Of a stretch of DNA of 64,000 bases, positions 24,101 through 39,129 are shown one piece after another. Under the pieces are notes generated by a model that had not been told where the DNA came from, searched no databases, and saw only the letters and a list, made by a program, of their open reading frames with translations. Origin of the DNA: Patescibacteria group bacterium (GTDB lineage: Bacteria; Patescibacteriota; Patescibacteriia; UBA2591; JAQUPP01); contig JAQUPP010000001.1 of NCBI GenBank assembly GCA_028716665.1, forward strand, positions 477,046 through 541,045, in the 5' to 3' direction. Position numbers and translations under genes: made by a program. The first letter of the stretch is position 1, and each line of letters begins with the position of its first letter.

Positions 24101-27100
24101 TGGTAATAAAATAGTTTGCACGGTAAAAAAAGATAAAGATTCTTGTGCTTATTATGTTTCTGATCATACTGAAACTGTTTTTTATCCATCAGAGTGTAGG
24201 CTGGAAGAAGAGACTCTTTATAAAGTGACAATCAGAGGGGGGATTAACGGAAAAGGAATAATAAGCAAATCAGGTGTTTCCATAAAGGACAAGGAATTTA
24301 CGTTTACTACCGGAAATAAATATAATTTTTGCGACGTGGATCAAATTAAGGTTTCACCAGTTTCAACTATAATTAAGAGTTTTAAAGAAATAAAAAAATT
24401 TACTGCTCAGGCCAAAGATACAGAAAATAATTCAATTTGTGTTCCTGGATTTATTTGGGGTTTTCCCGATGATATAAATGTGGCAAATTATATAGAATCA
24501 TGCAGTCCTGCTAATTGTGATTGTATTAATTCTCAAGGACCCAGTTGCGCTAGAAATCTAAAAAAGGTTTTAATGAATCCTGCTATTGAAGCAAACGTTC
24601 AGGCGCAAGCTGAAGGAGCAACCGGAGTTTCTGCGTTTACTGCCGGAAAAAATGGCTTGGCAAATCTTGAAGTTGATTTAATTTCACCGGTGATTACGAG
24701 TATTAGTCCGGAGGAAGGCACTAATAATCCAATTATTCCAACTTATGTGACAATTACCGGAATAAATTTTGGTTCAAGTCAAGGCGAAAGTAAAATAATG
24801 TTTGGTAATGTGACTGCGGATATTGCTTGTCAGAATTGGTCTGACAAGAGTATTGTCGCCATTGTGCCGCCAAGTTTAGATAAAGGGTTAAATCAAGTGA
24901 CAATTTTTCAATCAGATCAGGGAGCGAGTAATCAGGTGGGTTTTAAGGTGCAAGATTCTTTTCATCCGGCGATTTGCAAGCTTCAACCGAATTTCGGTAA
25001 AACGGGCGACATTGTTTCTATAAATGGAAAAAATTTTGGAGATACGATGGCTAATAACGGTAAAATTATTATTGGAGATCCTTTAAATGGGGGAGTAGAA
25101 TTAGTGAAAACGGTAAATAATAAATCTAATCCTAATATTTTATCTTGGTCTAATCAGGAAATAAAAATAAAAATGCCTGAAGTTGCTCAAAATGAAGCTG
25201 AGGTGACTGTCTCGGTTCCTTCGCCGATTGAAGCCGGTAATCCTTTAAAAATTAGCAATCCCGTAACATTTCACAAAGCCCCGATAATTACGAGTATTAC
25301 GCCCGGTGATGGTCCGAAAAAAACATGGATAACAATTCATGGTTATAATTTCGGCTCTGTGAAGGGTGTAGTTTCTTTTAAATATAATAATACTAATTAT
25401 TCAGCTGCTGATTTACCAACTTACTGCGGATCGTCTTGGAGCGATACGCAAATTATAGTTGAAGCGCCGCAAATTTTGCCGGACGTGGCGACTGATCAAG
25501 ATTCTTATAATCTTCAAATTGAGGTTGATACCGATTATGGAATAGCCAGTCAGTCGGTTAAATGGACACTTAATAAAAAATTATTGGGTCCGGCGCTTTG
25601 CTCGATTAATCCGTCCAATGGCTGGCCGGGATTTAGTCCGGTTACGATTCAGGGTGAAAGATTTAATTTAGCCAGTGGCGAATCCGCCCGAAGTCTTGTC
25701 TTTAATAAAGACAAGGAAGCGGCAATTTTAACTTGGTCAACTGATGGCGCGATAAACAATATCGCTGTTCCGCAAGACGCAACCAGCGGCAATGTAGTGG
25801 TCACAAAAACAATTCAGACCAACAGCCGTCAAAAATGTATCGGTATTTCTTTTGGCGGAAAGTGTTTTGGTAAAAAGCAAACGGTTTGGGATGAAATTAA
25901 AATGACCAGTAATCCTCTTCATTTTAATATTGTTCCTTTGGGTGGTTGCGGTATTTTCGGCACTTTGGATACTCGAGACAGGGATCCGATTTTAGTTGGC
26001 GAAAAAGAGAATGAATATCCGCCTGTTAATCCTTTTGACAGCCAAAGTGTAGGAACGCTCGCTACTGACGGAAAATATCTTTACACAAAAAGTTGGTCAG
26101 GTTATGATCAATGGCCAAATGGAGTTTACGGATGTACTAATGGCAGCGGCTGTGAAGATAATATGATTAGTAAAATCGGTACCGGTTATCAAGGAACTGT
26201 GTCCGGTAAAATTTATAAAAAAGATTTGGCAACAGTCAATCACAGTCTTACAATGACTTATTTTCCTGATGATTGGCTTTATAACGGTTATACTAATAAT
26301 GGACATAATTTAGAAAGAGTGAATGTGATCACTGGTGCGGTTGATTATGTTGAGATTCCATCGTCAACGCCTTTAATGAATCGGGAAACCGGACGAGATT
26401 TAACTGAATTATATGAAGATCTTTTAATCACTTCTGACGGGAAATATGTTTATAATTTAGCTCATGGTATTAATGGCTCTTATTATAATGGTTTTAGAGT
26501 TAAAATTTTTGACCCGAATAAAAATTGGCAATTAGTGAAAGAATGGACTTCAATTGGTTCGGGCAGTTATATTCCATCTTTTTATACTGACGGTATTATT
26601 GCTGACGGAGACTATATTTATGCGATTCAATGGGGCACCGCAGGAGGCGGAGGTTATCTGATTAGAAAGATGGAGGCTCTAACCGGTAAAGTAATTGCCG
26701 AGTGGACGAGTGAACAAAAACAACTTAATAATCCGCAAGGTAAAAATACGGATATTATTTCCGGACAATATGATTGGGTTAATAATAAAGTTTGGTTGGG
26801 CGACTTGGTTGACCGTAGGAATGCCGATAATAAGTGCGACCAATGTTCGGGCTATTGTCATTGCACTCCGGCTTATATTTATCGTTATGCTTGCCAGGGA
26901 GCAGGTCAGTTGGGCTTACCTCAAGTAATTGGAGATGCCAATTGCGAAACTAATCTTCCGAGTCCTTCACCGGCTGCGGATCTATCCGCTGTTTGCTCTA
27001 ATGCCGTTATCAGTGCGCGTTTTAATCAAAAAGTGAGCGGTTTGACTCCTTTAAATATTCTAGTTCAAAAATGCAATAATGGTTCAGATAATTTTAACTC

Positions 27101-30100
27101 TCAAAATTGTACTGCCGACGTGGCAGGTAGTATTTCTTTAGACAGTTTTAATAGTCAAGGTTTTATTTTTACGCCAACTAATAATTTAGACGCGAATTAT
27201 TGGTATCAGATTACGTTAAAAAGCGGTTCCACCGGAATTAAAAATCTTAATAATTATTCTTTGGATGGCAATAAAAATAATATTCAAGACGGCGAGGATA
27301 ATTATTTTTGGCATTTTAAAACAGGATCAAATCTTTGTTCGCCCGAGAAAGTTAAAATATCTGAAACAGTACTAGTCGGTGAAAAAGCGGGAATAATTAT
27401 TAAACCAGGAACTAGAAATTATTTTGCTCAAGCTTTTGGTCCAAATTGTCAAATTCTAAAATCCGCCAGTTTTTCATGGACTTGGACCTCGACAAAATCT
27501 GAATTTGCCACAGTCGGCAGTTCGGTTAACAATCAGACAACTGCGACAGGAGTTGATTTGGGAGAAACAGATATAACCGTAACAACAACTCAGCCGGATC
27601 CTTCTGATGCCACTAAAGAAATTAAATTATCAAATAAGACCCATTTGATTGTTGCTACTAGGCCAACAGCAATAAATTATCCAGCGGTTGGCAGTACTAA
27701 TATTTGTCTTAATACTTCAATCTCCGCTACTTTTGACCAATTAATGGATGGATCCACGCTTAATTCAAAGACAATTAAATTTTATAAAGTAGTTCCCGAT
27801 TTGGATGAAGAAGAAGAAGGATCTCCGCTTTCATTTAACCAAAATATTAATAAAAATATTTTGGTTAGATTTTTTAATAATTTAAAAAATGTTTTTCTAA
27901 AGAAAACTGAAGCGGCGGAAAAAATTAATATTTCCGTGGTTGATGATGCAAAACAAACTAAAGTTTATTTAAACATTGATTTATTAGATGAAAAGAGTAC
28001 TTATAAAATAGAAATTCTTGGGGGAGAGAATGGCGTAAAAAGTAAATATGGCATTGGGATGACAGCAGATAAATCTTGGACGTTTATCACCGGCAAGGAA
28101 ATTTGTAAATTGAGTGAGGTAAAAACATCCATAACCGGCAATTCTGAAAAATGTACGGTTGGCGCGGATAAAAAATCGGCAGAATGTTCCAAGGAAAATT
28201 CAACAGTTAATTTTAAAGCTATTGCCAAAAATAATAGAGGAGAAGAAATTCAAAGCGTGACCGGTTATCAGTTGGCTTGGTCATGGAAATCTTCTGATAC
28301 AAATGTGGCGACTATTTCTAACACAGTTAATAATGCTGTTGCTACGGTGAAAAATAAAAATGGTTCAGCCCAAATTACGGCCACGGCTGAAATAACGGGG
28401 GGGAAAGAAAAAATTTCCAATAGTGCGTCAATTAAAGTTTTCCTTTGTGAAGTTCCATGGATTTTTGAAGATAAACTCGGTCAAGCGGAGACGAAAGAGC
28501 CTTATACTAATTTCAGATTGCAATATTGCCAGGGAGATTTAAAGAAAAATTTGGTTTCTAATGGAAGTTTTGAAATAGATAAAACCAAAGATGGCATTCC
28601 CGATAATTGGTTAAATCATGGTAAAGAATATAGTACTGATGGTAAAAATAGTTATTCCGGTAAAGCGGCTATCAAGCCGGGTTATTCATGGTGCCAACCC
28701 AGTGATTCATCTGTTATGCAATATGACATTACTATAAAACCAAATACTTTTTATACGTTTTCAGCTTATGTTAAGGGTGAAAATATATATGCGCCGCGCA
28801 TAGATATAAGATTTTATCATGATATTTCCGAAGATCCTCATCAATTTTCCAATAATTGCGCTTGGTATAATGGTGGAGTAGATAAGGCTGATATAAATTG
28901 CAGTTTTTCCGGTGTTTTGGATAAAGATAGTTACAAACGAATTTATTTTACTTTTAATTCCGGATCGAATGATAAAATTCAATATATATCCCTCCAAGGC
29001 GTGGGAGGCGTTTGCAACCCGGCCCAAGCTTGTAATTGTGGAAATTCTTCAGGAAAACCTTGTGATGCCAGTGCGTGTCCGCGCGTAGTTTGGTTCGATA
29101 ATCTCCAATTGGAAGAAGGTAAACAACCAAGTGAATATCAGGATTTTCCATCCTTACCGTATCTTGTCGCAACCGAGACTACGAAATCAAGCGTAGTTAA
29201 AGAATTTATTTTTACCAATAGTGTTAATAATGACGTGATTGGTCTCAAGGTTTTAAAAAATCCTGATTATCTCACTCCTTTTGAATGGTATAAGAAAAAT
29301 GTACCCAATCCCGGTTCACCGACTTCATTAATTGTTAATGGTTATCAGGCGGTTAAAGAAGGAAGAACGGTTTATGTCGGCGCGACAAATGTTGATAATA
29401 ATGAAATAATTGAAGGTCTGATTTATCTCATCTCATATTCTGATAACGCCAAGCCGGAAACAATTGATATTTTTAATAAATTAGTTGAAGATTGGCAATT
29501 TAATACAAATAAAACTGTTGATAAACAACTGATCCAACGGGATTTGTTCCGACTTTATGATTTAAGAACAATGAGCCAAAAATTGGCGGATTATAAATCA
29601 AATTATGATTATTATCCAAAACTTGAGTCGGGCAGTTTTATGAAAGGAATAACCGATTCCAAATGGCCTTCTTGGAAAAATCCTCAAGGGCAATTTATTT
29701 CCAGTATGCCGAATGATCCGATTAATCAATTCTTAAACCCGACAAGCGGTTATTGCGCCGGTTGCAATAATGCTAGCCAATGCGATGGAACATGTTATAA
29801 TCAAAGTACGAGTAAATACGAGTGTCCGGTCGGTTCGCACGTTTATCAATACATGGTTAAAGATGGAGGGGCGGATTATAGTTTGTATTTGAATTTTGAG
29901 ACAGATTCTTTGAAATGGCAGAAAAGTTGCAGCGGCATGGATCAATCCAACTGTGAAATTCATTATTTATGCGGTTGGGCGGCCAATAAATGTCAGTCAA
30001 AATTATTCGGTTATAGCTCAGATATTTACAAATGTTTTGATTCTGTCTATGGTCCGGTTATTGGGAAAACAATAATAGATTCATATGGATCTATTAGCGG

Positions 30101-30125
30101 AATGAATACTAATTATCAGCAATAA
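21189..30125 (+). CDS. Giant multi-domain extracellular protein (2978 aa) with an N-terminal pilin-like two-TM hairpin, Ig-like/IPT domains, a Cys-rich module, a beta-propeller-like region, BIG2-like domains and a CBM/laminin-G-like domain
   Basis: A single ORF with no SD. The N-terminus is ...IVLGVLGLAATVIVIMGGFKWMTSGGDENKISEAKKLMMAGIVGILIIVLAY. Cys-dense segments include CRCCCDPKNDLCASPLHCL. An IPT-like segment is PVITSISPEEG...ITGINFG. The CBM-like segment runs GSFEIDKTKDGIPDNWLNHG...VWFDNLQLEEG. Confidence 0.8.
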   Translation: MKIEIIRQTANKKQLKKNIFLGFLCLLMVSGFLFFILSPVMTKAQEMNNGLENFRSAANYANTDLPTAMGRIMKIVLGVLGLAATVIVIMGGFKWMTSGGDENKISEAKKLMMAGIVGILIIVLAYAISSFIIGKLMSVTPPPPPCVGSSCLNNPYNPLPVDVFKVKRIESTHGSSLKAGSLQTDYHQDVYLCSAVQPMFNNWINAEAIKDLAQNDLRVETTTGGNKINGEWQTRDGIIIFKHQDLFNENTEYTTYLPKAILNTSSKTLQDCLASGTANGKCIENGSYFIWNFTTGTTTDKVAPTITSVYPILDQTNKHYPDQNVSLKPAIEVNFSEAIDATTVIEEDSVNPISDNIWLAEIDKQGGIIKETLLPEEFTVNMSDNGFRLNLSDANLLKPFTWYRIHVSDIKDLCSNKMAAAMEWEFQTNDRAPGISSVYPEGNKVCLDSNISIVFNTQMYDNNIDIEISDGVDTFTTNMTPSVIGVPYQKVITGGIFKVDNPKDPIDNGFRIFTFEPTNNLKSNTKYTIKINTDLVIDQKGALLAREWNFTTATPETCLCSPWISSLNPEQGSNGQCLTISGACFTGTDLQSADPKIEFILNSVSKPATIGGKDKNYITTVVPSDYIKSDQPQVQVTIKYRTGGEELVSNPSEFTVDSDETATGPCLWSINPSSGYPSETSVNLSGLRFGPASGQTTQQVKFYNNQSASFKTWSDNLIEKTLVPTDAVTGNVAIINDAGTSNGIPFTVLPHVGSAGSLCRASECPSNPLNTCTAPYQCKNESTDTCRCCCDPKNDLCASPLHCLADQGSCNSTSAINPRGLCCGCTGDDQCGAGAGCGMLDSNRCCYNQPTVKISACSNPQNPSKKIGNNTAISIIFSDLMNYGSLKEENIKIFEETAGICKLDKICEQETSCNCQVKNATVCTVNKNNKECNYEHIPVQGRIINSDVQREEICKLATLNCDKDKGCDCKNGNKIVCTVKKDKDSCAYYVSDHTETVFYPSECRLEEETLYKVTIRGGINGKGIISKSGVSIKDKEFTFTTGNKYNFCDVDQIKVSPVSTIIKSFKEIKKFTAQAKDTENNSICVPGFIWGFPDDINVANYIESCSPANCDCINSQGPSCARNLKKVLMNPAIEANVQAQAEGATGVSAFTAGKNGLANLEVDLISPVITSISPEEGTNNPIIPTYVTITGINFGSSQGESKIMFGNVTADIACQNWSDKSIVAIVPPSLDKGLNQVTIFQSDQGASNQVGFKVQDSFHPAICKLQPNFGKTGDIVSINGKNFGDTMANNGKIIIGDPLNGGVELVKTVNNKSNPNILSWSNQEIKIKMPEVAQNEAEVTVSVPSPIEAGNPLKISNPVTFHKAPIITSITPGDGPKKTWITIHGYNFGSVKGVVSFKYNNTNYSAADLPTYCGSSWSDTQIIVEAPQILPDVATDQDSYNLQIEVDTDYGIASQSVKWTLNKKLLGPALCSINPSNGWPGFSPVTIQGERFNLASGESARSLVFNKDKEAAILTWSTDGAINNIAVPQDATSGNVVVTKTIQTNSRQKCIGISFGGKCFGKKQTVWDEIKMTSNPLHFNIVPLGGCGIFGTLDTRDRDPILVGEKENEYPPVNPFDSQSVGTLATDGKYLYTKSWSGYDQWPNGVYGCTNGSGCEDNMISKIGTGYQGTVSGKIYKKDLATVNHSLTMTYFPDDWLYNGYTNNGHNLERVNVITGAVDYVEIPSSTPLMNRETGRDLTELYEDLLITSDGKYVYNLAHGINGSYYNGFRVKIFDPNKNWQLVKEWTSIGSGSYIPSFYTDGIIADGDYIYAIQWGTAGGGGYLIRKMEALTGKVIAEWTSEQKQLNNPQGKNTDIISGQYDWVNNKVWLGDLVDRRNADNKCDQCSGYCHCTPAYIYRYACQGAGQLGLPQVIGDANCETNLPSPSPAADLSAVCSNAVISARFNQKVSGLTPLNILVQKCNNGSDNFNSQNCTADVAGSISLDSFNSQGFIFTPTNNLDANYWYQITLKSGSTGIKNLNNYSLDGNKNNIQDGEDNYFWHFKTGSNLCSPEKVKISETVLVGEKAGIIIKPGTRNYFAQAFGPNCQILKSASFSWTWTSTKSEFATVGSSVNNQTTATGVDLGETDITVTTTQPDPSDATKEIKLSNKTHLIVATRPTAINYPAVGSTNICLNTSISATFDQLMDGSTLNSKTIKFYKVVPDLDEEEEGSPLSFNQNINKNILVRFFNNLKNVFLKKTEAAEKINISVVDDAKQTKVYLNIDLLDEKSTYKIEILGGENGVKSKYGIGMTADKSWTFITGKEICKLSEVKTSITGNSEKCTVGADKKSAECSKENSTVNFKAIAKNNRGEEIQSVTGYQLAWSWKSSDTNVATISNTVNNAVATVKNKNGSAQITATAEITGGKEKISNSASIKVFLCEVPWIFEDKLGQAETKEPYTNFRLQYCQGDLKKNLVSNGSFEIDKTKDGIPDNWLNHGKEYSTDGKNSYSGKAAIKPGYSWCQPSDSSVMQYDITIKPNTFYTFSAYVKGENIYAPRIDIRFYHDISEDPHQFSNNCAWYNGGVDKADINCSFSGVLDKDSYKRIYFTFNSGSNDKIQYISLQGVGGVCNPAQACNCGNSSGKPCDASACPRVVWFDNLQLEEGKQPSEYQDFPSLPYLVATETTKSSVVKEFIFTNSVNNDVIGLKVLKNPDYLTPFEWYKKNVPNPGSPTSLIVNGYQAVKEGRTVYVGATNVDNNEIIEGLIYLISYSDNAKPETIDIFNKLVEDWQFNTNKTVDKQLIQRDLFRLYDLRTMSQKLADYKSNYDYYPKLESGSFMKGITDSKWPSWKNPQGQFISSMPNDPINQFLNPTSGYCAGCNNASQCDGTCYNQSTSKYECPVGSHVYQYMVKDGGADYSLYLNFETDSLKWQKSCSGMDQSNCEIHYLCGWAANKCQSKLFGYSSDIYKCFDSVYGPVIGKTIIDSYGSISGMNTNYQQ

Positions 30126-30154: not shown

Positions 30155-30760
30155 ATGCCAGATGAAATAAAAAATTTAGATGCGGATTTTGCCAATCAAG
30201 ATGGGGGAGTGGAAGATATTTTTGAGGATGTTGAGCGTAAGAATTTTATTTCTGATGAAAATAAAAATTCCGACAATTCATCGTCAAATCGCAAGAAATT
30301 CAATAAGAATTTTGTCCGTGTTGTTTTTATTATTATCATTATCGCGATTGTCGGGGCGGGAGTTTATTATTACGCTTTGCCGAAAATAAAAAATTTAATG
30401 GAACAGGCAAAAATAAAAAAACTCAATCAGACCGGGCAGCCTCAAGCAAATTCGGAAGACAAGACGGCGCCGATAATCATTATTAAGCCGATTGAAATGG
30501 CTCCTGATGCGGATGGTGACGGCTTGACGGATGAAGAAGAAATCACACTGGGCACTGATAAAAATAAATCTGACACTGATAACGATGGTCTTTCCGACCG
30601 AGAAGAAGTTAAAGTTTATTTAACAAATCCCTTAAAACTTGATACTGACGGAGACGGCATTAAAGACAGTCAGGAAATTAAAAATAATACTGATCCGAAT
30701 AATTCAAACCCAAACGCCAAATTATTGGATTTACAAAAAGAAATTGATAAATTAAAGTAA
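30155..30760 (+). CDS. Single-pass membrane protein with thrombospondin type-3-like Ca-binding Asp repeats
   Basis: Acidic N-terminal cytosolic segment, then a TM helix, then DADGDGLTDEEE...DTDNDGLSDREE...DTDGDGIKDSQE repeats. Confidence 0.6.
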   Translation: MPDEIKNLDADFANQDGGVEDIFEDVERKNFISDENKNSDNSSSNRKKFNKNFVRVVFIIIIIAIVGAGVYYYALPKIKNLMEQAKIKKLNQTGQPQANSEDKTAPIIIIKPIEMAPDADGDGLTDEEEITLGTDKNKSDTDNDGLSDREEVKVYLTNPLKLDTDGDGIKDSQEIKNNTDPNNSNPNAKLLDLQKEIDKLK

Positions 30761-31086: not shown

Positions 31087-32673
31087 ATGCCAGAAGAAAC
31101 ACCAATTCAACCGGAACCACAAAAAACAAATACTTCCGCGGTGCAGGATATTTTTTCTAATCCTCCGGCGGCGGCGAAAAGGGAGATTACAGAAGAAGTG
31201 ACTCAATACGGGACTACCGGAGAGATGATTTACGTTATGCCGGAAAAATTTCGTAAAGCTCAGCGCAAGCTATCAAAAAAAGATAAAAATAAATCTCTTA
31301 TTTTAATTTTGTGTCTTTTAATTATTATTATCGGCGGAGGATTGGGATTTTATTTTTGGATAAAAAATTATCATCCGAATATTCCGGTTATCACTCAAAT
31401 TCCGGCCATTACTCAACCGGATGAAAATAATTCTTCTTCTGTCCCGGTCGCAAATACTTCAATTGAACAGACTCTAAAAGCGGAAATAAAAGATCAATCA
31501 GGAGAATCTGTCTCTTGGTTGGAATTCTATTTACCTGCCGGAGCGGTCGATTCAAATTTAAAAATTGAATTAACTTCAGAACCGACAACCAATAATGATA
31601 CATATAATGATTATAAGGTTATTGGAGGAATTTATAAAATTCAATCCACTAATCTTGTTTTGCAAAAATCCGCAACCTTAAGAGCTTTTTATCATAATAA
31701 AATTATTGAAAGCAATTGGGAAAGCGATATTGCCTTGGGTTATTTAAAAGATAATATTTGGACTCCCTTATCAAGCACGCAAGATGCGGAAAATAATTTA
31801 GTCACTGTTCAATTAGACCTTCTGCCCTCCGATACATTTGCTTTGATTGTTTCAAAAAATAAAGCAACGCCTAAAATAGAAACATTTCAAGTGGCTCCGC
31901 AAATTTCTTCCACGATTGATTCTGATCAAGACAGTCTAACCGACACTGAAGAAACGATTTATCGTACGGGTATTAATAATCCTGATACTGATGGCGATGG
32001 CATAAGTGACGGTCAAGAAATAGTTAATTTAACCGATCCGTTGCAAGCGGGGGAGAATAAGCTTTCGGCCGCCGGTTTGGTTAATATTTATACCAACTCC
32101 ACTTTTTCCTACAGTTTTTTCTATCCATCTTCTTGGATAACCAGGGCGATTCCGGAAACTAACAACGAAGAAGTTTTGGTGATTACCAATACCGGAGAAT
32201 TTTTCAGCGCGACGGTGGAAAAAAATCCCGACCAATTGTCTTTGATTGATTGGTATTTAAAACAATCGCCGACAACAGAAAGAAATTTATTGACTAATAT
32301 TACGGTTAATAATCAACCTGCTCTTTGGAGTTCGGATCATTTGACAATTTATATTGCCAAAGATGAAAATGTCTATACGGTTTCATATAATGTCGGCACT
32401 GAAAAAGAGGCGAATTTCAAGGCTACTTTTAAAATGTTAATTAACAGCTTTCAATTCATCATTCCGTCCTCACCCGTTTCATCAAGGCCTGATGGAACTT
32501 TAATAAAATATCCGGACAGCGCCATGGTTTATTTGATTGAAAACGGCAGTAAAAGAGTTTTTAAATCAGGAGAAATTTTTGAAAAATTAGGTTATAAATG
32601 GGAAAATGTGATAGAAATTTCAGCGGATGAAACTTTTTTGGATGGTTCTATCATTGATGAAAATGAATCATAA
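31087..32673 (+). CDS. Single-pass membrane/surface protein with a TSP3-like Asp repeat and the shared C-terminal ~50-aa module
   Basis: TM at about residue 70-95. Repeat is DSDQDSLTDTEE...DTDGDGISDGQE. C-terminus is PDGTLIKYPDSAMVYLIENGSKRVFKSGEIFEKLGYKWENVIEI. No SD; start context is ttaaaaaatttggtatATG. Confidence 0.65.
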   Translation: MPEETPIQPEPQKTNTSAVQDIFSNPPAAAKREITEEVTQYGTTGEMIYVMPEKFRKAQRKLSKKDKNKSLILILCLLIIIIGGGLGFYFWIKNYHPNIPVITQIPAITQPDENNSSSVPVANTSIEQTLKAEIKDQSGESVSWLEFYLPAGAVDSNLKIELTSEPTTNNDTYNDYKVIGGIYKIQSTNLVLQKSATLRAFYHNKIIESNWESDIALGYLKDNIWTPLSSTQDAENNLVTVQLDLLPSDTFALIVSKNKATPKIETFQVAPQISSTIDSDQDSLTDTEETIYRTGINNPDTDGDGISDGQEIVNLTDPLQAGENKLSAAGLVNIYTNSTFSYSFFYPSSWITRAIPETNNEEVLVITNTGEFFSATVEKNPDQLSLIDWYLKQSPTTERNLLTNITVNNQPALWSSDHLTIYIAKDENVYTVSYNVGTEKEANFKATFKMLINSFQFIIPSSPVSSRPDGTLIKYPDSAMVYLIENGSKRVFKSGEIFEKLGYKWENVIEISADETFLDGSIIDENES

Positions 32674-32695: not shown

Positions 32696-33499
32696 ATGTC
32701 AACGGCTGATTTAATCATTAAAAAAAGAGTGGTTATTTTTTTTATAGTAATAGTTTTACTTTTTTTTGCTTTTTCCAATGGAGGAAAAAATACTCTATTT
32801 TTTTTATTGAAACCTTTCGAAAAATTATCTTATAAAATTTCGGGTCATCCGAAAAATTATATTGAATGTCAAAATTGGCAAAATGATAAATTGGCGTTGG
32901 AAAAAGAAATAAATAATCTTAAAACCGAAAATACCAAATTTCAAATATATCAAACGGAAAATCAAGTTTTAAAAAATCATTTAAATTTTTTAGAAACCTC
33001 CAAGGATTCATTTGTCATAACTAATGTTATAGGTAAAAGAATAGAAGCAGGTTATACTTGGTTTTTACTTGATAAAGGTAAAAAAGACGGTGTGAATATT
33101 GATCTGGCAGTTGTTGATGAAAATGGAATATTGGTTGGCACGATAATAAAAGTTGAAGATTATATTTCATTTTTACAGCCGGTTTTTGACAGTCATTCGC
33201 AAATTACCGCTGATATTATCATAAAGGGAGAGAGCCCTAATTCTGTCTCAGGGATAGTGCAGGGAGAATACGGCTTGACTATGAAAATGAATTATATCCC
33301 GCTTGATAAACCGATAAAAACCGGAGATATTATCATTACTTCGGGATTGGAAGAAAATATCAGGAGGGGATTGATAATTGGCGAGGTGGCGGAGATTAGC
33401 AAAAAACCAAATGCAGTTTTTCAGGAAGCAACTATTAAATCACCTAAGTCTCTCTTGGATTTAAGAATCGCGTCAATAATTTTAAAAAATACCCCATAA
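32696..33499 (+). CDS. mreC: Rod shape-determining protein MreC
   Basis: N-terminal TM, a coiled-coil and a C-terminal beta domain ending ...GLIIGEVAEISKKPNAVFQEATIKSP. It is followed by mreD and PBP2. Confidence 0.65.
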   Translation: MSTADLIIKKRVVIFFIVIVLLFFAFSNGGKNTLFFLLKPFEKLSYKISGHPKNYIECQNWQNDKLALEKEINNLKTENTKFQIYQTENQVLKNHLNFLETSKDSFVITNVIGKRIEAGYTWFLLDKGKKDGVNIDLAVVDENGILVGTIIKVEDYISFLQPVFDSHSQITADIIIKGESPNSVSGIVQGEYGLTMKMNYIPLDKPIKTGDIIITSGLEENIRRGLIIGEVAEISKKPNAVFQEATIKSPKSLLDLRIASIILKNTP

Positions 33500-33539
33500 A
33501 GTTTTAAAATATAAAAATGATTTTTAAATTTTTAGATTT

Positions 33540-34052
33540 TTGTATTCTAATATGGCCAAATTGAAACTTATATTATTATTTTTTTCAATAATCTGTTTAA
33601 ATATTTTACAGATTTCTTTTTTATTTAAATCTTCGGTTCTAAGGTATTTGAATCTTGCTCTGATTTTAATAATTCTTTTGCTAATTTTTAATAAATTTAA
33701 ATTTGCTATTTTGGCTGTGTTAACGAGCGGTGTTCTATTGGATTTATACTCTATTTTTAAGCCGGGAGTTTTTTTTCTGACATTTTTATTGACTTTGATT
33801 ATCTCTTATAAAATTATCAAAGAATTCAGTCAGATGTCGACGAACAGTGTTTTAATTGTGGCTATTTTAAGTAATATAGTTTATCAAATTATTATTTTAA
33901 TTATTGTTTGGCTTGCTTATTTTTTAAATTTTCAAGATTTTATGGTGGTGACAGACAGATTCTATTGGTTTAATTTTGGCTGGTCTGTTTTAGTAAACAG
34001 CATGGCAATAATCATGGGATATTCAATTATTAAAACTTTACGTCAAAAATAA
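33540..34052 (+). CDS. mreD: Rod shape-determining protein MreD (polytopic membrane protein)
   Basis: 170-aa, highly hydrophobic, five predicted TM segments, in the canonical position between mreC and mrdA. Confidence 0.5.
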   Translation: MYSNMAKLKLILLFFSIICLNILQISFLFKSSVLRYLNLALILIILLLIFNKFKFAILAVLTSGVLLDLYSIFKPGVFFLTFLLTLIISYKIIKEFSQMSTNSVLIVAILSNIVYQIIILIIVWLAYFLNFQDFMVVTDRFYWFNFGWSVLVNSMAIIMGYSIIKTLRQK

Positions 34053-34075
34053 AACAATGATAAGAAATATTTCTT

Positions 34076-36001
34076 ATGGACGATCCATTTAAAATTCAAC
34101 AAGAAGATAAGAATATCAGAGATGGAAATTTAGAAGGATTTAATCAGCGACGATATACGGGAAATTATTGGCCGCCGGAAGAAAATTGGGCCGGGCCGAT
34201 AGTTTTGCCTATGGAGAAAAAATCTCTTAATGTTTTTATTTTTTTAATGATCGCGGTTTTGACGATTGTATTCGGCAGAATTTTTTGGCTTCAAGTTTTT
34301 TCCGGACAGGAATTTAGGAATATGGCCGAGGGCAATAGAATCCGTGTTGAAACGATTAAGGCGGATAGAGGGCTTATCTATGATCGCTATCAGACTCCGC
34401 TTGTTAAAAATATGCCAAATTTTTCTTTAATAATAATACCTGTGGATTTGCCTAAAAATAAAGAAACAAGGATAGAAATTGTTAATAAAATTTCATCTTT
34501 TTTGGGGAAATCATTAGAAGATTCAATTAAAGAGGAATTGTCTAAGCTTACGGCTGATCAGCCCAATCAATCAGTATACCCCGTTGTTTTAAAAGATAGT
34601 TTGAGTTATGAAGAAGCGATGAAGTTAAAATTGGAAGAAATACCAGGCATCTCCGTAATTGTAGAACCAAAAAGGCAATATTTGGATCCTACTTATTTTT
34701 CGCACGTTATCGGTTATATGGGTAAAATTACACCCGAAGAATTGACTGATAATAAAGGATATTCAAGAACAGATTCTCTTGGTAAAACCGGATTGGAATT
34801 AAATTATGAAAATATTTTAAAAGGAGAAAATGGAGAAACAAATATTGAAGTTGATTCGCTTGGAAGAGAAAAAAGAATCGCCAGTCAAAAAACACCTCAA
34901 ACCGGACAAGATTTGATTTTAACCATTGACGCTGGTTTGCAAAAAAAAGTTACTGACGTTTTGAGTCATTATATTAAAGCGGCCGGCGCTCGCGCCGGAT
35001 CAGCCGTAGCAATAGATCCACGAAACGGCGAGATTCTGGCCATTGTCAGTTGGCCGACTTTTGATAATAATATTTTTATTCAAGCAAGCGCCAGTGATTT
35101 TAAAACTTTAATAGAAGATTCTTTCAAACCATTATTCTTCAGGGCAATCAGCGGTCAATATCCGTCAGGTTCAATTTTTAAGCCGATTGAAATAGCTGCC
35201 GCTTTTGCCGAAGGCATTATTAACGAGAAAACAACAATTCTTTCAACCGGAGGAGTGAGAATCGGACAATGGTTTTTCGGTGATTGGAAAACAGAAGGAC
35301 ATGGTATTACTGATTTTAGAAAAGCTTTGGCCGAATCGGTAAATACTTTTTTTTATTATATCGGCGGAGGATTTGGAAATTTTAAAGGCCTTGGACCGGA
35401 AAAAATTATTCAGTATGCCGAACTTTTCGGTTTAAACAGCAAAACAGGGGTTGATTTAAAAGGCGAGTCATCGGGTTTTTTATTAACACCTGCTTACAAA
35501 GAAAATGTTCAAAAACAGCCGTGGTATATCGGTGATACTTATCATTTATCCATCGGCCAGAGCAATATTTTAGTAACGCCGATTCAAGTGGCGAATTATA
35601 CGGCGGCCATTGCCAATGGCAAAACTCTTTTTCAACCTCGTTTGGTCAAGGAAATTGACAATTCGGAAACCGGCCAAAAAATAATAATTCAGCCGCAAAT
35701 TATCAGAGAAAATTTTATTGATCCAAAATATTTGGAATTAGTCAGAGAAGGAATGCGTCAAACAATAACTGTGGGCAGCGCGCGCAGTTTAAATACTTTG
35801 CCGATTCAAGTAGCCGGTAAAACAGGCACAGCCCAGGTGGAAGGAAAAGGCAATCACGCTTGGTTTACTTGTTTCGCGCCTTATGAAAATCCGGAAATAG
35901 CTCTAACTATTTTAGTGGAAAATGGAGGCGAGGGCTCATCTTTTGCCGCGCCGGCAGCCAAAGAAATTTTATCCTGGTGGGCAGAGCAAAAGAAAAAATA
36001 A
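34076..36001 (+). CDS. mrdA: Penicillin-binding protein 2 (peptidoglycan D,D-transpeptidase)
   Basis: PBP dimerisation domain plus transpeptidase motifs: SxxK (SGSIFKP), SxN (SVN) and KTGT (KTGTAQV). Confidence 0.85.
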   Translation: MDDPFKIQQEDKNIRDGNLEGFNQRRYTGNYWPPEENWAGPIVLPMEKKSLNVFIFLMIAVLTIVFGRIFWLQVFSGQEFRNMAEGNRIRVETIKADRGLIYDRYQTPLVKNMPNFSLIIIPVDLPKNKETRIEIVNKISSFLGKSLEDSIKEELSKLTADQPNQSVYPVVLKDSLSYEEAMKLKLEEIPGISVIVEPKRQYLDPTYFSHVIGYMGKITPEELTDNKGYSRTDSLGKTGLELNYENILKGENGETNIEVDSLGREKRIASQKTPQTGQDLILTIDAGLQKKVTDVLSHYIKAAGARAGSAVAIDPRNGEILAIVSWPTFDNNIFIQASASDFKTLIEDSFKPLFFRAISGQYPSGSIFKPIEIAAAFAEGIINEKTTILSTGGVRIGQWFFGDWKTEGHGITDFRKALAESVNTFFYYIGGGFGNFKGLGPEKIIQYAELFGLNSKTGVDLKGESSGFLLTPAYKENVQKQPWYIGDTYHLSIGQSNILVTPIQVANYTAAIANGKTLFQPRLVKEIDNSETGQKIIIQPQIIRENFIDPKYLELVREGMRQTITVGSARSLNTLPIQVAGKTGTAQVEGKGNHAWFTCFAPYENPEIALTILVENGGEGSSFAAPAAKEILSWWAEQKKK

Positions 36002-36036
36002 TATTTTTGTAAAATGTGATATAATTTAAAATAAAT

Positions 36037-36687
36037 ATGGGTTTTGATATTTTATCAAATAAAAATACAAGAGTTCTTCTGTTAGTAGCTCATCCCGATG
36101 ATGAAACTATTTTTTGTGGCGGTACAATGCTTCTTTATCCCTATTGCCAATGGGCGGTGGTTTGTATGACCGATGGACCAGGAAATGCTCCGCGTGAAGA
36201 ATTCGAAAAGGCCATAGAAAAATTTAAAAAATTAGGAGTCAATATTATTTCATACTTATGGCTTGGGCAGGAAAAATTTAAGAAAACAAAAAAGGAAATG
36301 AGCGAAGCAGAAAAAAGGGTTATAGAATCAGGAAACAATACCCTAAGATTAAAATGGAAAACCGAAATTGAACAATGTAATTTTAATCCAGACATTGTAA
36401 TAACTCACAACGAAAGAGGCGAATATGGTCATATAGATCATAAAGAGCTACATTTAATTATAAAAAGTTTATTTTCTAATGTTTGGGATTTTTTTTATCC
36501 TAAGCACAATGAAAATAAAATCACCTACAAAAAAAGAGAAAATATTGAATTAAATAATGCAATATTAAAAATAAAAAGAGATATCATCCACGATATCTAT
36601 AAGTCCCAAGTTGATAATTTAAAAGGTCTTCCGGATTTATGTGACTACGAACTTAATAAGGGACCAGAAATATTTATCTCAAGTTAG
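36037..36687 (+). CDS. PIG-L/LmbE family N-acetylglucosaminyl deacetylase
   Basis: RVLLLVAHPDDETIFCGGTML signature, and HIDHKEL (His-rich metal site). Confidence 0.75.
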   Translation: MGFDILSNKNTRVLLLVAHPDDETIFCGGTMLLYPYCQWAVVCMTDGPGNAPREEFEKAIEKFKKLGVNIISYLWLGQEKFKKTKKEMSEAEKRVIESGNNTLRLKWKTEIEQCNFNPDIVITHNERGEYGHIDHKELHLIIKSLFSNVWDFFYPKHNENKITYKKRENIELNNAILKIKRDIIHDIYKSQVDNLKGLPDLCDYELNKGPEIFISS

Positions 36688-36702: not shown

Positions 36703-39129
36703 TTGAATTATATGAAAAAACAATTTAAAATTTTATCAATTCTAGCTATTTGTGTGATATTAAATTTTGTATTAATTAAACAAGCTTGTGCTGAAACTGA
36801 AGTTTCGGGTAATATCACGACGGATACTACTTGGACGTTGGCAAATAGTCCTTATATTGTAACTGCCACTGCGCAGGTTTTGGGAGGCGTTAGGCTTACG
36901 ATTGAACCAGGGGCTACGATTAAGTTTAATGAAGGTACGGGGTTAAATGTTGGCGGAGAGTTAATAGCGAGAGGAACTCAAATAAATATTATTAATTTTA
37001 TGCCCAATCAAAGTCTAAATTGGGGTGGAGTTAAATTTTTAGACTCAAGTATAGACGCTGTTTTTGACGAAAATGGAAATTATAAAAACGGAAGTATTAT
37101 AGAATATAGCAATATAGAAAAAGCAGGATATTATTCTACTGTAGTTGGGAAGAGGTATGCTATTGATATTGATAGTGCTTCCCCCTTTATTAGCAAAAAT
37201 ACAATAGTCGACAATCTCTCTGAAGCTATTTGGGCTATGCATTCTTTTGCTCAAATTACAAATAATGTTATTAGCAATAATACGGCTGGGATAACCATTA
37301 TTTATGATTCGCCCACAATCAAAAATAATAAAATATTTAGCAATAATAACTCAGGAATCCATTTTTATAATGGAGCAAATCCTATTATTACTTCAAACAG
37401 TATATACGACAATAATTATGGGATTTCTACTTGTTTATATCCCAATCCACCAAAGATAAATAATAATAATATTTTTAGCAATAATTATAATATTTTTTTA
37501 CAAAATTGTGGTGTATTCAGCGAGATAGACATGACTAAAAATTGGTGGGGGACAACAGACATTTCTTCTATTAATTCAAAAATTTATGATTATTATGATG
37601 ATATTTCTTTGGGTAAAGTAAATTATGAACCTTATGGCCTATCTGAACTAAAATTCGACGGAACAGATGCATTTAGTTCCGCACCTATAGTCGCTTGTAC
37701 ATCTTTTGTATATAGCGACTGGTCTACTTGCCAATCTAATGGCATACAAACCAGAACCGTAATTTCATCTTCCCCCTCTAGTTGTACAGGCGGTAATCCA
37801 GTGTTGACACAATCCTGCACATATACTTCGCCGACTTGTACTTCTTGGACATACTCAGACTGGAGCACCTGCTCCACTGATGGCCAACAAAGAAGAACAG
37901 TTGTTTCTTCTTTCCCTCTCGACTGTATTGGCGGTAATCCTATATTAACTCAGTCTTGTATTTATATTCCGTCAACCTGTATTTCATGGATTTATTCCGA
38001 TTGGTCTGTTTGTCAATCTAATAATATGCAAAATAGGTCTATAATTTATTCTTCTCCAAGTGGTTGCTCTAATGGAAATCCAATATTGACTCAATCTTGC
38101 ACATATATTTATACTCCACCAACTTGTACTTCGTGGACATATTCTAATTGGAGTGCTTGTATTAATAATCAACAAAGCAGAACAATGATATCGTCACAGC
38201 CTACAAGCTGTATTGGCGGTAATCCTATATTAATACAAACTTGTAGTCTTACACCAGCCTGTTCAGAAAACGACTGGACGTCTATTCTAACTCCAACGGC
38301 CTGTCCAAATAACAGTCAACAAACAAAAACATGGTATAAAATAGGACAATGCCAAGAAGGGGTTACTCATCCATCTACAGAAACAATTAGTTGTAATTAT
38401 CAAGCACTTACTTGTACTGATTTCATATACAATGATTGGAGTGCGTGCGGTTTAAGCGGTGTGCAATCAAGGACAGTATTTTCTTCTTCTCCAGCAAATT
38501 GTATAGGTGGAAATCCCATATTAAATCAAACCTGTACTTATATTCCTACCTGTATAGCTAATAATTGGTCTTGTGGTAATTGGTCTAGTTGTTCTTCAAA
38601 TGGTACTCAAACTAGAATATGCAATAAAATTTTAAATTGCGATGGAGGCGTATTGTCGCCTGCAACTACACAATCATGTATTTATACATCGCCAGAAAAA
38701 CAAGAAAATATCGGTTCACTTTCGGACGGAACATTGGCCAGAATAAAAGGTACGGCCGGTGTTTATTTAATCTATAATAACCAAAAACGCCCCATTAAGA
38801 GCGCTGCGGTATTTCTGGGCAGAGGTTATAAATGGAAAAATATAATTGACGTTGATGCGAATATATTAAATGTTTATCCTACGGGCTCAGAATTAACAAT
38901 TTCAGAAGCAATAAATATAGTGCCAAAAAATCAAGGTATTAAAATAAAGATTAATGTCCCAAGTTTGCGAGTCAGAAGTTTACCTAATGCGAGTGGAAAA
39001 ATTATTACTTCAGTTAAGAGCGGAAAAGAATATCAAGTGATTGAAGAACAAACCGGTTGGTATAAAATAAATTATAGTGTTAATAAAACAGGCTGGATAA
39101 TGAGCCAATATACTAAAATAATTAAATAG
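36703..39129 (+). CDS. Secreted protein with a right-handed beta-helix repeat region, about six TSP1-like Cys/Trp repeats, the shared C-terminal module and a terminal SH3b domain
   Basis: Signal peptide. NN(V/I)xSNN beta-helix repeats. Repeats of the form TCTSWTYSDWSTCSTDGQQRRTVVSS.P..C.GGNPILTQSC. Then DGTLARIKGTAGVYLIYNNQKRPIKS...GYKWKNII, then SLRVRSLPNASGKIITSVKSGKEYQVIEEQTGWYKINY. Confidence 0.75.
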   Translation: MNYMKKQFKILSILAICVILNFVLIKQACAETEVSGNITTDTTWTLANSPYIVTATAQVLGGVRLTIEPGATIKFNEGTGLNVGGELIARGTQINIINFMPNQSLNWGGVKFLDSSIDAVFDENGNYKNGSIIEYSNIEKAGYYSTVVGKRYAIDIDSASPFISKNTIVDNLSEAIWAMHSFAQITNNVISNNTAGITIIYDSPTIKNNKIFSNNNSGIHFYNGANPIITSNSIYDNNYGISTCLYPNPPKINNNNIFSNNYNIFLQNCGVFSEIDMTKNWWGTTDISSINSKIYDYYDDISLGKVNYEPYGLSELKFDGTDAFSSAPIVACTSFVYSDWSTCQSNGIQTRTVISSSPSSCTGGNPVLTQSCTYTSPTCTSWTYSDWSTCSTDGQQRRTVVSSFPLDCIGGNPILTQSCIYIPSTCISWIYSDWSVCQSNNMQNRSIIYSSPSGCSNGNPILTQSCTYIYTPPTCTSWTYSNWSACINNQQSRTMISSQPTSCIGGNPILIQTCSLTPACSENDWTSILTPTACPNNSQQTKTWYKIGQCQEGVTHPSTETISCNYQALTCTDFIYNDWSACGLSGVQSRTVFSSSPANCIGGNPILNQTCTYIPTCIANNWSCGNWSSCSSNGTQTRICNKILNCDGGVLSPATTQSCIYTSPEKQENIGSLSDGTLARIKGTAGVYLIYNNQKRPIKSAAVFLGRGYKWKNIIDVDANILNVYPTGSELTISEAINIVPKNQGIKIKINVPSLRVRSLPNASGKIITSVKSGKEYQVIEEQTGWYKINYSVNKTGWIMSQYTKIIK

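Follow-up and report, generated by a model that had tools for sequence, protein, structure and literature searches.

Reviews regard thrombospondin type-1 repeats (TSRs; TSP_1, PF00090) as a domain of animal type that apicomplexans obtained by lateral transfer (PMC3417536). They are small extracellular modules of about 55-60 residues arranged in tandem, as in the 'group 2' TSRs of F-spondin and TRAP and in C6-C9. A TSR-like fold is also accepted for the midkine (MK) and pleiotrophin (PTN) domains, whose disulfides follow the 'group 2' pattern (Tan et al. 2002, PMC2173040). In the open-access literature we found no description of TSR-like repeats in the Candidate Phyla Radiation (CPR), in DPANN archaea or in other prokaryotes. 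Here we describe a shorter tandem repeat, with a unit of 47 residues, in a protein of a Patescibacteria group bacterium. Its gene, at 36712..39129, lies in a stretch of 64,000 nucleotides (contig JAQUPP010000001.1, positions 477,046 to 541,045), called the window below; features given with coordinates are numbered within the window and lie on its forward strand (+). Like the TSRs, the repeat is a small extracellular tandem module, for which three antiparallel strand segments are predicted.

Our favoured reading, held with modest confidence, is that the repeats are distant, minimal relatives of the TSR and midkine/pleiotrophin domains, and that they would form a disulfide-stapled, semi-rigid stalk joining the beta-helix head of the protein to its wall-binding tail. 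Three partly independent lines of evidence point to the TSR/midkine superfamily: TSR-type Pfam models that homologous units match repeatedly, a controlled profile-profile comparison with the residue register that it gives, and the ranking of known structures in a structure search.

The repeat array and its family

The product of 36712..39129 contains seven tandem Cys-rich repeats of 45-51 residues each (aa 331-664). An earlier note on this DNA had placed about six repeats at 37696-38679. The repeats are real, and these coordinates (aa 332-659) begin at the first Cys of the array and end at its last, but the units number seven. Five are canonical (type A) with four Cys: R1 (37693..37833, aa 331-377, domain E-value 3e-27), R2 (37834..37974, aa 378-424, 9.6e-26), R3 (37975..38121, aa 425-473, 1.7e-24), R4 (38122..38256, aa 474-518, 8.3e-23) and R6 (38410..38547, aa 570-615, 1e-24). 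The other two, taken from the translation, are variants: R5 (38257..38409, aa 519-569, 0.028 for a partial match) is of type B and has four Cys, and R7 (38548..38694, aa 616-664, 7e-7) is of type C and has six. A hidden Markov model (HMM) built solely from the repeats of other proteins recovers all seven units, with E-values from 3e-27 to 0.028.

The canonical units are 60-64% identical to R1, R7 is 51% and R5 38% identical. The type B unit follows the pattern C..DW...C.....QQTKTW.K.G.C..G..H....E..C, and type C has an extra Cys in strand A and another where strand B ends. Both are subtypes conserved across many homologues, type C in 37 non-redundant units. Profile comparison with hhalign indicates that R5 and R7 are homologous to canonical type A, with a probability of 76.5% (P 2.2e-5) for type B and 96.8% (P 2.1e-10) for type C.

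The Cys count agrees with the 4-6 per unit of the earlier note, with four in each unit and six in R7. The Trp pair that it described is present in R2-R4 only, in the pattern W-x-Y-S-x-W with a spacing of five and not as W-S-x-W; R1 and R6 have Phe in the first place. What was called an Arg ladder (QxRT) is a single conserved Arg in a Q-x-R motif. The units are near neutral, with a net charge of -2 to +1, they contain about 30% Ser plus Thr, and Lys plus Arg make up 3.0% of the region. Pro-rich linkers of 2-6 residues join them. No DNA-level tandem repeat was detected across the array, so the duplication of the units is old and an artefact of recent DNA duplication is ruled out. No second open reading frame (ORF) in the window bears the repeat.

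A word-indexed protein search with the repeat region gave 268 homologous proteins. With a profile of the single unit we found 2,008 cluster representatives (50% identity) at E<=1e-3, and 395 at E<=1e-30, among 1.84 billion proteins. The homologues contain from 1 to 14 copies. According to the source annotations of the 268 proteins from the word search, they belong to Patescibacteria lineages (Staskawicz-, Pace-, Falkow-, Moran- and Parcubacteria), to DPANN or unclassified archaea (Candidatus Ainarchaeum) and to a few Nitrospirae. By sequence, the repeats belong to a large prokaryotic family that is centred on Patescibacteria/CPR and extends to DPANN archaea and a few other groups. The statement that TSRs are rare in bacteria is misleading for this clade, where about 2,000 clusters at 50% identity carry the unit. 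Two of the DPANN or unclassified archaeal homologues, P0040 and P0018, have repeats of both types A and B. A scan of viral contigs with the homologue P0011 gave no match.

From 816 full-length units, the first half of the consensus reads T-C2-T-S-[FWY]5-T-Y7-S-x-W10-[GS]-x-C13-x3-4-[GN]17-x-Q19-T-R21-T-[VI]23, and it continues -x-S-S-S-P28-x-G-C31-x-G-G34-x-P36-x-L-x-Q40-x-C42-T-Y. All four Cys are retained in 814 of the 816 units, so that joint losses of Cys carry no signal on how they pair. Conservation is also high for P28 (99%), Y7 (98%), R21 (96%), W10 (93%), G34 (92%) and Q19 (90%), and position 5 is mostly aromatic, with Phe in 65%, Trp in 18% and Tyr in 12% of the units. The repeat is combined with extracellular partner domains throughout: Big_13, fn3, LamG, cytochrome c and b5, beta-helix, cohesin, PG_binding_1, SH3_3, PKD and trypsin-like domains. 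An N-terminal hydrophobic segment, either a signal peptide or a transmembrane segment, is present in 153 of 218 complete homologues (70%).

The repeat unit has no model in Pfam (2025 copy) or in NCBIfam (June 2026). A few homologues bear precomputed PF00090 or PF01091 matches, and PROSITE, SUPERFAMILY or InterPro may already flag some family members. PF24784 (Temptin_C), which is found in some homologues, falls outside the repeats.

Similarity to TSR and midkine domains

To relate the family to known domains, 146 diverse homologous units were scanned singly against all 24,736 Pfam models. Four families recur: PTN_MK_C (PF01091, the midkine/pleiotrophin C-domain) with 22 units and a best E-value of 5.3e-5, TSP_1 with 18 units and a best of 8.9e-4, ELAPOR1_C with 10 and TSP1_ADAMTS with 8. 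All other matches are singletons, and the TSP_1 matches are below threshold. PTN_MK_C is the Pfam family most often matched both by units and by whole homologues. Among the latter, P0020, P0008 and P0003 reach 46.2, 39.5 and 28.5 bits with PTN_MK_C (cut-off 25.3). P0109, whose repeats are 55% identical, obtains 27.1 bits with TSP_1 (cut-off 21.6), summed over three stretches, and also 22.1 bits with TSP1_ADAMTS and 13.5 bits with TSP1_spondin.

The family ELAPOR1_C (PF23089) calls for separate mention. Its short profile of 37 positions matches the Y-S-x-W-G-x-C...Q-T-R stretch of the unit, and the homologue P0040 passes its cut-off on a type A unit (36.1 bits against 27). ELAPOR1 is a eukaryotic endosomal membrane protein, unlike the members of the repeat family, and the P0040 match points to a possible link with a domain of that protein. 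As a match to a family of unclassified fold, it neither supports nor contradicts the relationship with TSRs.

For the profile-profile comparison we used thrombospondin-1 (TSP-1) TSR sequences verified as identical to those in PDB 7yyk and 1lsl. The TSR profile is thin, with 14 sequences that are all thrombospondin-like; a search for TSRs had yielded no more than 12 sequences, the database being mainly one of prokaryotes. The hhalign P-value of the family profile is 3.4e-4 against three TSP-1 TSRs and 2.4e-4 against the 14 TSRs. When the 14-TSR alignment is trimmed to the TSR core, the probability is 76% with a P-value of 2.3e-5 and a score of 26.2 over 38 columns. Permuting the columns of the TSR alignment 300 times gave a mean score of 9.9 (standard deviation 2.4, maximum 20.3), and none of the 300 reached 26.2; the match is therefore not due to Cys and Trp composition. 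With the alignment reversed, the score is 10.9. For comparison, the PTN/MK C-domain, whose TSR-like fold is accepted, obtains only P 0.049 against the same TSR profile. Against four verified PTN/MK sequences the family profile gives P 1.1e-3 over 17 columns, which cover strand A only. Among the variants, type C matches the TSRs at P 4.4e-4 over 14 columns, and type B has no direct similarity to them (P 0.29).

The alignment also places the conserved residues of the unit on structural positions of TSR2 of TSP-1, for which we take the register from hhalign and the residue roles from PMC2173040. In strand A, Y7 falls on Trp423 of the W2 layer, W10 on Trp426 of the W3 layer and C13 on Cys429 of the C2 layer. 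G17 aligns with Gly436, for which no role is listed. Strand B follows with Q19 on Ile438 of the R3 layer (Gln in TSR1 and TSR3), R21 on Arg440 of the R2 layer and V/I23 on Arg442 of the R1 layer. P28 corresponds to the cis-Pro447 of the small jar handle, C31 to Cys456 of the C1 layer, G34 to Gly458 of the large jar handle and C42 to Cys466 of the C2 layer. The motif Q40-x-C42 parallels Gln521-x-Cys523 of TSR3, in which Gln521 pairs with the R3-layer Gln495 (PMC2173040). As in TSRs, Ser or Gly follows the aromatic residues. In terms of motifs, the family and the TSRs have W-x-x-C at the end of strand A, G-x-Q-x-R on strand B in register, a Pro after strand B, C-x-G at the start and Q-x-C at the end of strand C.

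Because of this register, the disulfides are predicted to be C2-C31, a 'group 2' top bridge that ties the N-terminal end of strand A to the beginning of strand C, and C13-C42 in the bottom Cys layer. Cys444, the group-1 partner of Cys456, aligns with a Ser in the family, and the invariant C2 at the N-terminus of strand A corresponds to the group-2 arrangement of F-spondin and midkine, with the N-terminal Cys placed alike. The layer stack would be reduced to C / F? / V / Y / R / W / Q / C, and the third TSR disulfide would be absent. This third, bottom disulfide is absent also in the C-terminal TSRs of C6-C9, and two-disulfide TSRs exist (PMC2173040). By sequence pattern, the conserved set of one Trp, Tyr, Arg, Gln and four Cys is a minimal midkine/group-2-like one.

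The family also resembles the PTN/MK C-domain. Both have exactly four Cys, with spacings of 11/18/11 in the family and 10/22/10 in PTN_MK_C, and both start with aromatic-x-x-W-G-x-C and have a K/Q-T-R-T motif. The PTN/MK sequences read C-K-Y-x-F-x-x-W-G-x-C...K-x-R-x-G...C...K-P-C, and the family consensus reads C-T-S-F-T-Y-S-x-W-G-x-C...Q-T-R-T-V...C...Q-S-C. However, PTN and MK are growth factors that bind heparin, are strongly basic and contain the domain once per protein, whereas the family forms neutral tandem arrays; the basic surface is missing in all seven units of the window protein.

Structure models were made with AlphaFold2 (AF2) from the family alignments and searched with Foldseek against 350,542 PDB chains. 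The mean predicted local distance difference test (pLDDT) score is 94.6 for R1-R3 and 92.9 for R2 alone. In the models each unit has strand segments at 4-7, 18-20 plus 23-27 and 39-41, in a three-segment antiparallel layout and not in that of a Cys-knot. With the triple model, each of ranks 1-21 is a chain from a protein that contains TSRs or is TSR-like (E 0.09 to 3): properdin, C6, C7, another chain of the membrane attack complex, TSR2-3 of TSP-1 (3r6b, 7yyk, 1lsl), Unc5A, midkine-a (2lut) and MIC2 (8j64_B). Pure TSR chains among them are 1lsl, 3r6b, 7yyk and 8j64_B, and the TSRs of Sema5A and F-spondin come lower in the list. The R2 model alone finds C6/C7, Unc5A (TM-score 0.53, root-mean-square deviation (rmsd) 3.7 A, 42 columns), the MIC2 TSR (TM-score 0.50, rmsd 3.6 A) and TSR1 of F-spondin at the top. 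EGF-like, defensin/laterosporulin-like and Pholiota-lectin-like folds were set aside, as Foldseek places them far down its lists and nothing in the sequence speaks for them. The cryo-EM chains of Elapor1 are also low. Among the viral structures of BFVD nothing is significant; a prasinovirus 'Thrombospondin type 1 domain protein' is at rank 4 with E 0.17.

A number of results weigh against this relationship. The window protein, its repeat region and each single repeat have no TSP_1 or PTN_MK_C match in Pfam at E<=10, and an hmmsearch of all PDB sequences with the family profile is empty at E<=10. The identification as TSR-like made in the earlier note is upheld in part: at the level of the family it has the support of Pfam recurrence, hhalign and structure ranking, and for the window protein itself the TSP_1 match that it called for is absent. 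Where homologues exceed the Pfam cut-offs, they do so as whole proteins, by adding up several weak stretches and not with any single domain, and this is therefore not counted as formal domain membership. ELAPOR1_C, of unclassified fold, also matches the units.

None of the canonical hallmarks of TSP_1 membership is found in full. Instead of WxxWxxW, the family has W10 as its sole conserved Trp, with Y7 in the place of the second Trp and a Phe besides. Instead of RxRxR, it has Q19-x-R21-x-[VI]23, which aligns with the R3, R2 and R1 layers with one Arg and a hydrophobic R1 position. Instead of six Cys and three disulfides it has four consensus Cys; it lacks the second Cys of CSxTCG in the AB loop as well as the C-terminal Cys. 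Where canonical TSRs have three Trp and three Arg, the family conserves one of each. The unit also differs from TSRs in its shorter B-C loop, in its near neutral surface, in lacking the O-fucosylation motif (C-x-x-S/T-C-x-x-G) and in being prokaryotic.

On the structural side, no Foldseek match reaches E<=1e-3 among the 350,542 chains, and the best E-value is 0.09 with R1-R3 and 0.74 with R2 alone. Single-unit TM-scores are 0.40-0.57 with an rmsd of 3.6-5.4 A, and a TM-score of about 0.5 over 47 residues is borderline; an unrelated small lectin, 6fx1_B, reaches 0.52. The matches to large complement chains are given at the level of the chain and not of its aligned part. The structure search is best described as a strong rank enrichment and not as a significant pairwise match.

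These same results can be read as convergence: an independent disulfide-rich mini-domain of CPR and DPANN would have arrived at a TSR-like topology and at the W..C and Q.R motifs. Lack of a Pfam match for the window protein and of a PDB sequence match for the profile, the non-significant Foldseek E-values at TM-scores of about 0.5 and the single Trp and Arg beside four Cys all fit this explanation, as do hhalign probabilities of only 38-76%, given that small Cys-rich domains are prone to spurious profile matches. We nevertheless consider it rather unlikely. The similarity survives the permutation (0/300) and reversal controls, and four TSR-type Pfam models (TSP_1, TSP1_ADAMTS, TSP1_spondin, PTN_MK_C) are matched with none other than ELAPOR1_C recurring beside them. 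At least nine landmark positions are in register, including the cis-Pro and the jar-handle Gly, and the structure search independently ranks TSRs first of the 350,542 chains. From this we infer homology rather than convergence, and with it the stacking of the layers. A true distant homology to the TSR/midkine superfamily is probable, and a TSR-like fold with three strands and two disulfides is more probable still.

The rest of the protein and its neighbourhood

The gene 36712..39129 codes for a secreted surface protein of 805 residues from an ATG start, named 'NosD domain-containing protein [Patescibacteria group bacterium]' by NCBI. The ORF extends over 36703..39129 (808 codons) when counted from an alternative TTG start; the NCBI start is the ATG at 36712. 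The identical 805-residue product is on record in three NCBI metagenome-assembled genomes (contigs including JAQVAD010000014.1 and JAQTOE010000030.1; accessions MDD3102061.1 etc.). A search of GTDB genomes with the whole protein gave only partial relatives, which cover the head, the C-terminal module or the SH3 domain.

The N-terminus, MKKQFKILSILAICVILNFVLIKQACA (36712..36792), has a basic n-region, a hydrophobic core and an A-x-A site, and read from the sequence it is a putative Sec signal peptide with cleavage before ETE. As the earlier note had stated, a beta-helix precedes the repeats and a shared C-terminal module and an SH3b domain follow them. The Pfam-supported core of the right-handed parallel beta-helix head is at 37096..37557 (aa 132-285), where Beta_helix (PF13229) scores 45.8 bits (6.6e-12, cut-off 25.9) and NosD (PF05048) 45.2 bits (9.9e-12, cut-off 23.6). 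With the isolated N-terminal part the Pfam E-values are 8.8e-14 for Beta_helix and 4e-12 for NosD, and the para_beta_helix repeat of NCBIfam also matches it. The domain probably spans about aa 31-330. Between this core and SH3_3 at aa 754-804 Pfam finds no family, and the precomputed annotation of the deposited protein has the same gap.

The C-terminal module (38695..38952, about aa 665-750) has no family assignment; the Pfam and NCBIfam scans yield just a weak EccB-like match. It is shared with the neighbouring surface protein of ORF 31087..32673, where aa 657-720 match 32452-32628 with 42% identity over 64 residues (E 3e-9, tblastn in the window), and with a Candidatus Kuenenbacteria protein at 42% identity over aa 672-735. 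It may be a second wall-binding element. The SH3b domain (38962..39114, aa 754-804) matches SH3_3 (PF08239) with 46.2 bits (5.3e-12, cut-off 27). Among solved structures it is closest to SH3b domains from autolysins and hydrolases of the cell wall (2kq8, E 1.3e-6, followed by 2krs and 4krt), and partial NCBIfam matches are to the SH3 regions of EntFM and of the cell-wall-binding proteins EntA, EntB and EntD. From these relatives it is likely a cell-wall-binding anchor.

Immediately upstream, at 32696..36687, is a cell-wall elongation cluster of mreC, an mreD-like membrane ORF, penicillin-binding protein 2 (PBP_dimer plus Transpeptidase) and a PIG-L family deacetylase. Downstream of the repeat-protein gene are greA and lysS. 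The ORFs 30155..30760 and 31087..32673 contain bacterial thrombospondin type-3 repeats (PF18884), which are unrelated to the type-1 repeat, and the second of them also has a PsbP_2-like region.

Other large proteins are coded further upstream. A giant ORF of 2,978 residues with 95 Cys, at 21189..30125, matches families of type IV secretion system pilins (TrbC-VirB2) at its N-terminus (aa 56-132) and continues with four Big_5 domains and three TIG domains, as if a huge surface protein had been fused to a pilin-like anchor. The ORF 4603..11547, with 2,314 residues, has at least four CarboxypepD_reg-like domains and other prealbumin/Ig-like matches, and is a very large probable surface protein. 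At 15675..18140 there is a histidine kinase with dCache, HAMP and PAS domains, in an organism with a small genome.

Possible function and origin of the repeats

Among the possible functions, a role as stalk is the most likely one. The array is located between the head and the SH3b domain, copy number varies among homologues, the repeat is combined with many different partner domains, and its units have little net charge and much Ser and Thr. Arrays of Big, fn3 and PKD domains with SH3b or PG_binding anchors have the same position in bacterial surface proteins, between a head and a wall-binding tail, and likewise a variable number of copies. Their unit is a beta-sandwich of roughly 90 residues, whereas the repeat would be an unrelated, three-stranded mini-domain stapled by disulfides and, unlike them, dependent on disulfide formation outside the cell.

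We infer both this stalk role and the orientation of the protein on the cell, which would come about as follows. The protein would be exported by Sec and its signal peptide cleaved. The 30 Cys of the repeats would then be oxidised outside the cell, probably by a system of the MdbA/VKOR type. A disulfide-forming system of this type is reported to be enriched in CPR (bioRxiv 10.1101/335083). Against this step, a regular-expression search of the window for thioredoxin, DsbA or MdbA-type CxxC proteins found none that was convincing. The C-terminal module and SH3b would bind the wall of the cell itself, and the stapled units, head to tail with their Pro-rich linkers, would form a semi-rigid rod with an estimated length of a few tens of nm. 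This rod would hold the beta-helix head beyond the wall, where the head would bind or cleave glycans.

Alternatively, the repeats themselves could be adhesive and attach the episymbiont to polymers on the host surface, with avidity from the seven copies. Eukaryotic TSRs and midkine/pleiotrophin domains are classical binding modules (PMC2173040), as in TRAP, MIC2 and thrombospondin, and Patescibacteria, the group of this organism, are reported to live attached to hosts. Large Cys-rich extracellular proteins of CPR have been proposed to serve in attachment (PMC4736985), and the tandem copy number varies among the homologues, which would suit adhesion too. However, the units lack the positive groove of heparin-binding TSRs at their net charge of -2 to +1, so the adhesive role that the earlier note gave as typical of TSRs was not borne out. 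Further, Y7, W10, Q19, R21, P28, G34 and the Cys align to core and layer positions and not to a surface patch, and a repeat that occurs beside cytochromes, proteases, cohesins and lectin-like domains is more easily seen as a generic spacer than as the binder of a single ligand. Adhesion by the repeats is the main functional rival, which we judge rather unlikely, and the stalk remains the role that we favour.

Concerning the origin, we hold with moderate confidence that the family, for which neither Pfam nor NCBIfam has a model, is a minimal prokaryotic branch of the TSR/midkine fold with four Cys per unit. One step further, and doubtful, is the possibility that this large CPR/DPANN branch is old and represents the ancestral two-disulfide form behind the eukaryotic TSRs, and that the repeat is a core block of the host-contact surface. 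The opposite direction, in which a TSR/midkine-like module was transferred from a eukaryote and then expanded in ultrasmall prokaryotes, could appeal to the earlier lateral movement of TSP1, e.g. into apicomplexans (PMC3417536), and to the concentration of the family in few lineages, but is very unlikely for a large and deeply diverged family (2,008 clusters, three subtypes) that spans bacteria and archaea, is far in sequence from eukaryotic TSRs and has no direct HMM match for the window protein.

If the relationship is true, a fold of the animal extracellular matrix, of complement and of parasite invasion has thousands of unannotated relatives in the least-understood prokaryotes, and the origin of the TSR superfamily becomes open to phylogenetic testing. 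With a family model for the 47-residue unit and the two variant types, a recurrent 'blank' region could be annotated in some 2,000 clusters of CPR/DPANN surface proteins, and such proteins would be marked as extracellular and disulfide-dependent. It would also help to define the cell-surface architecture by which episymbionts reach their hosts.

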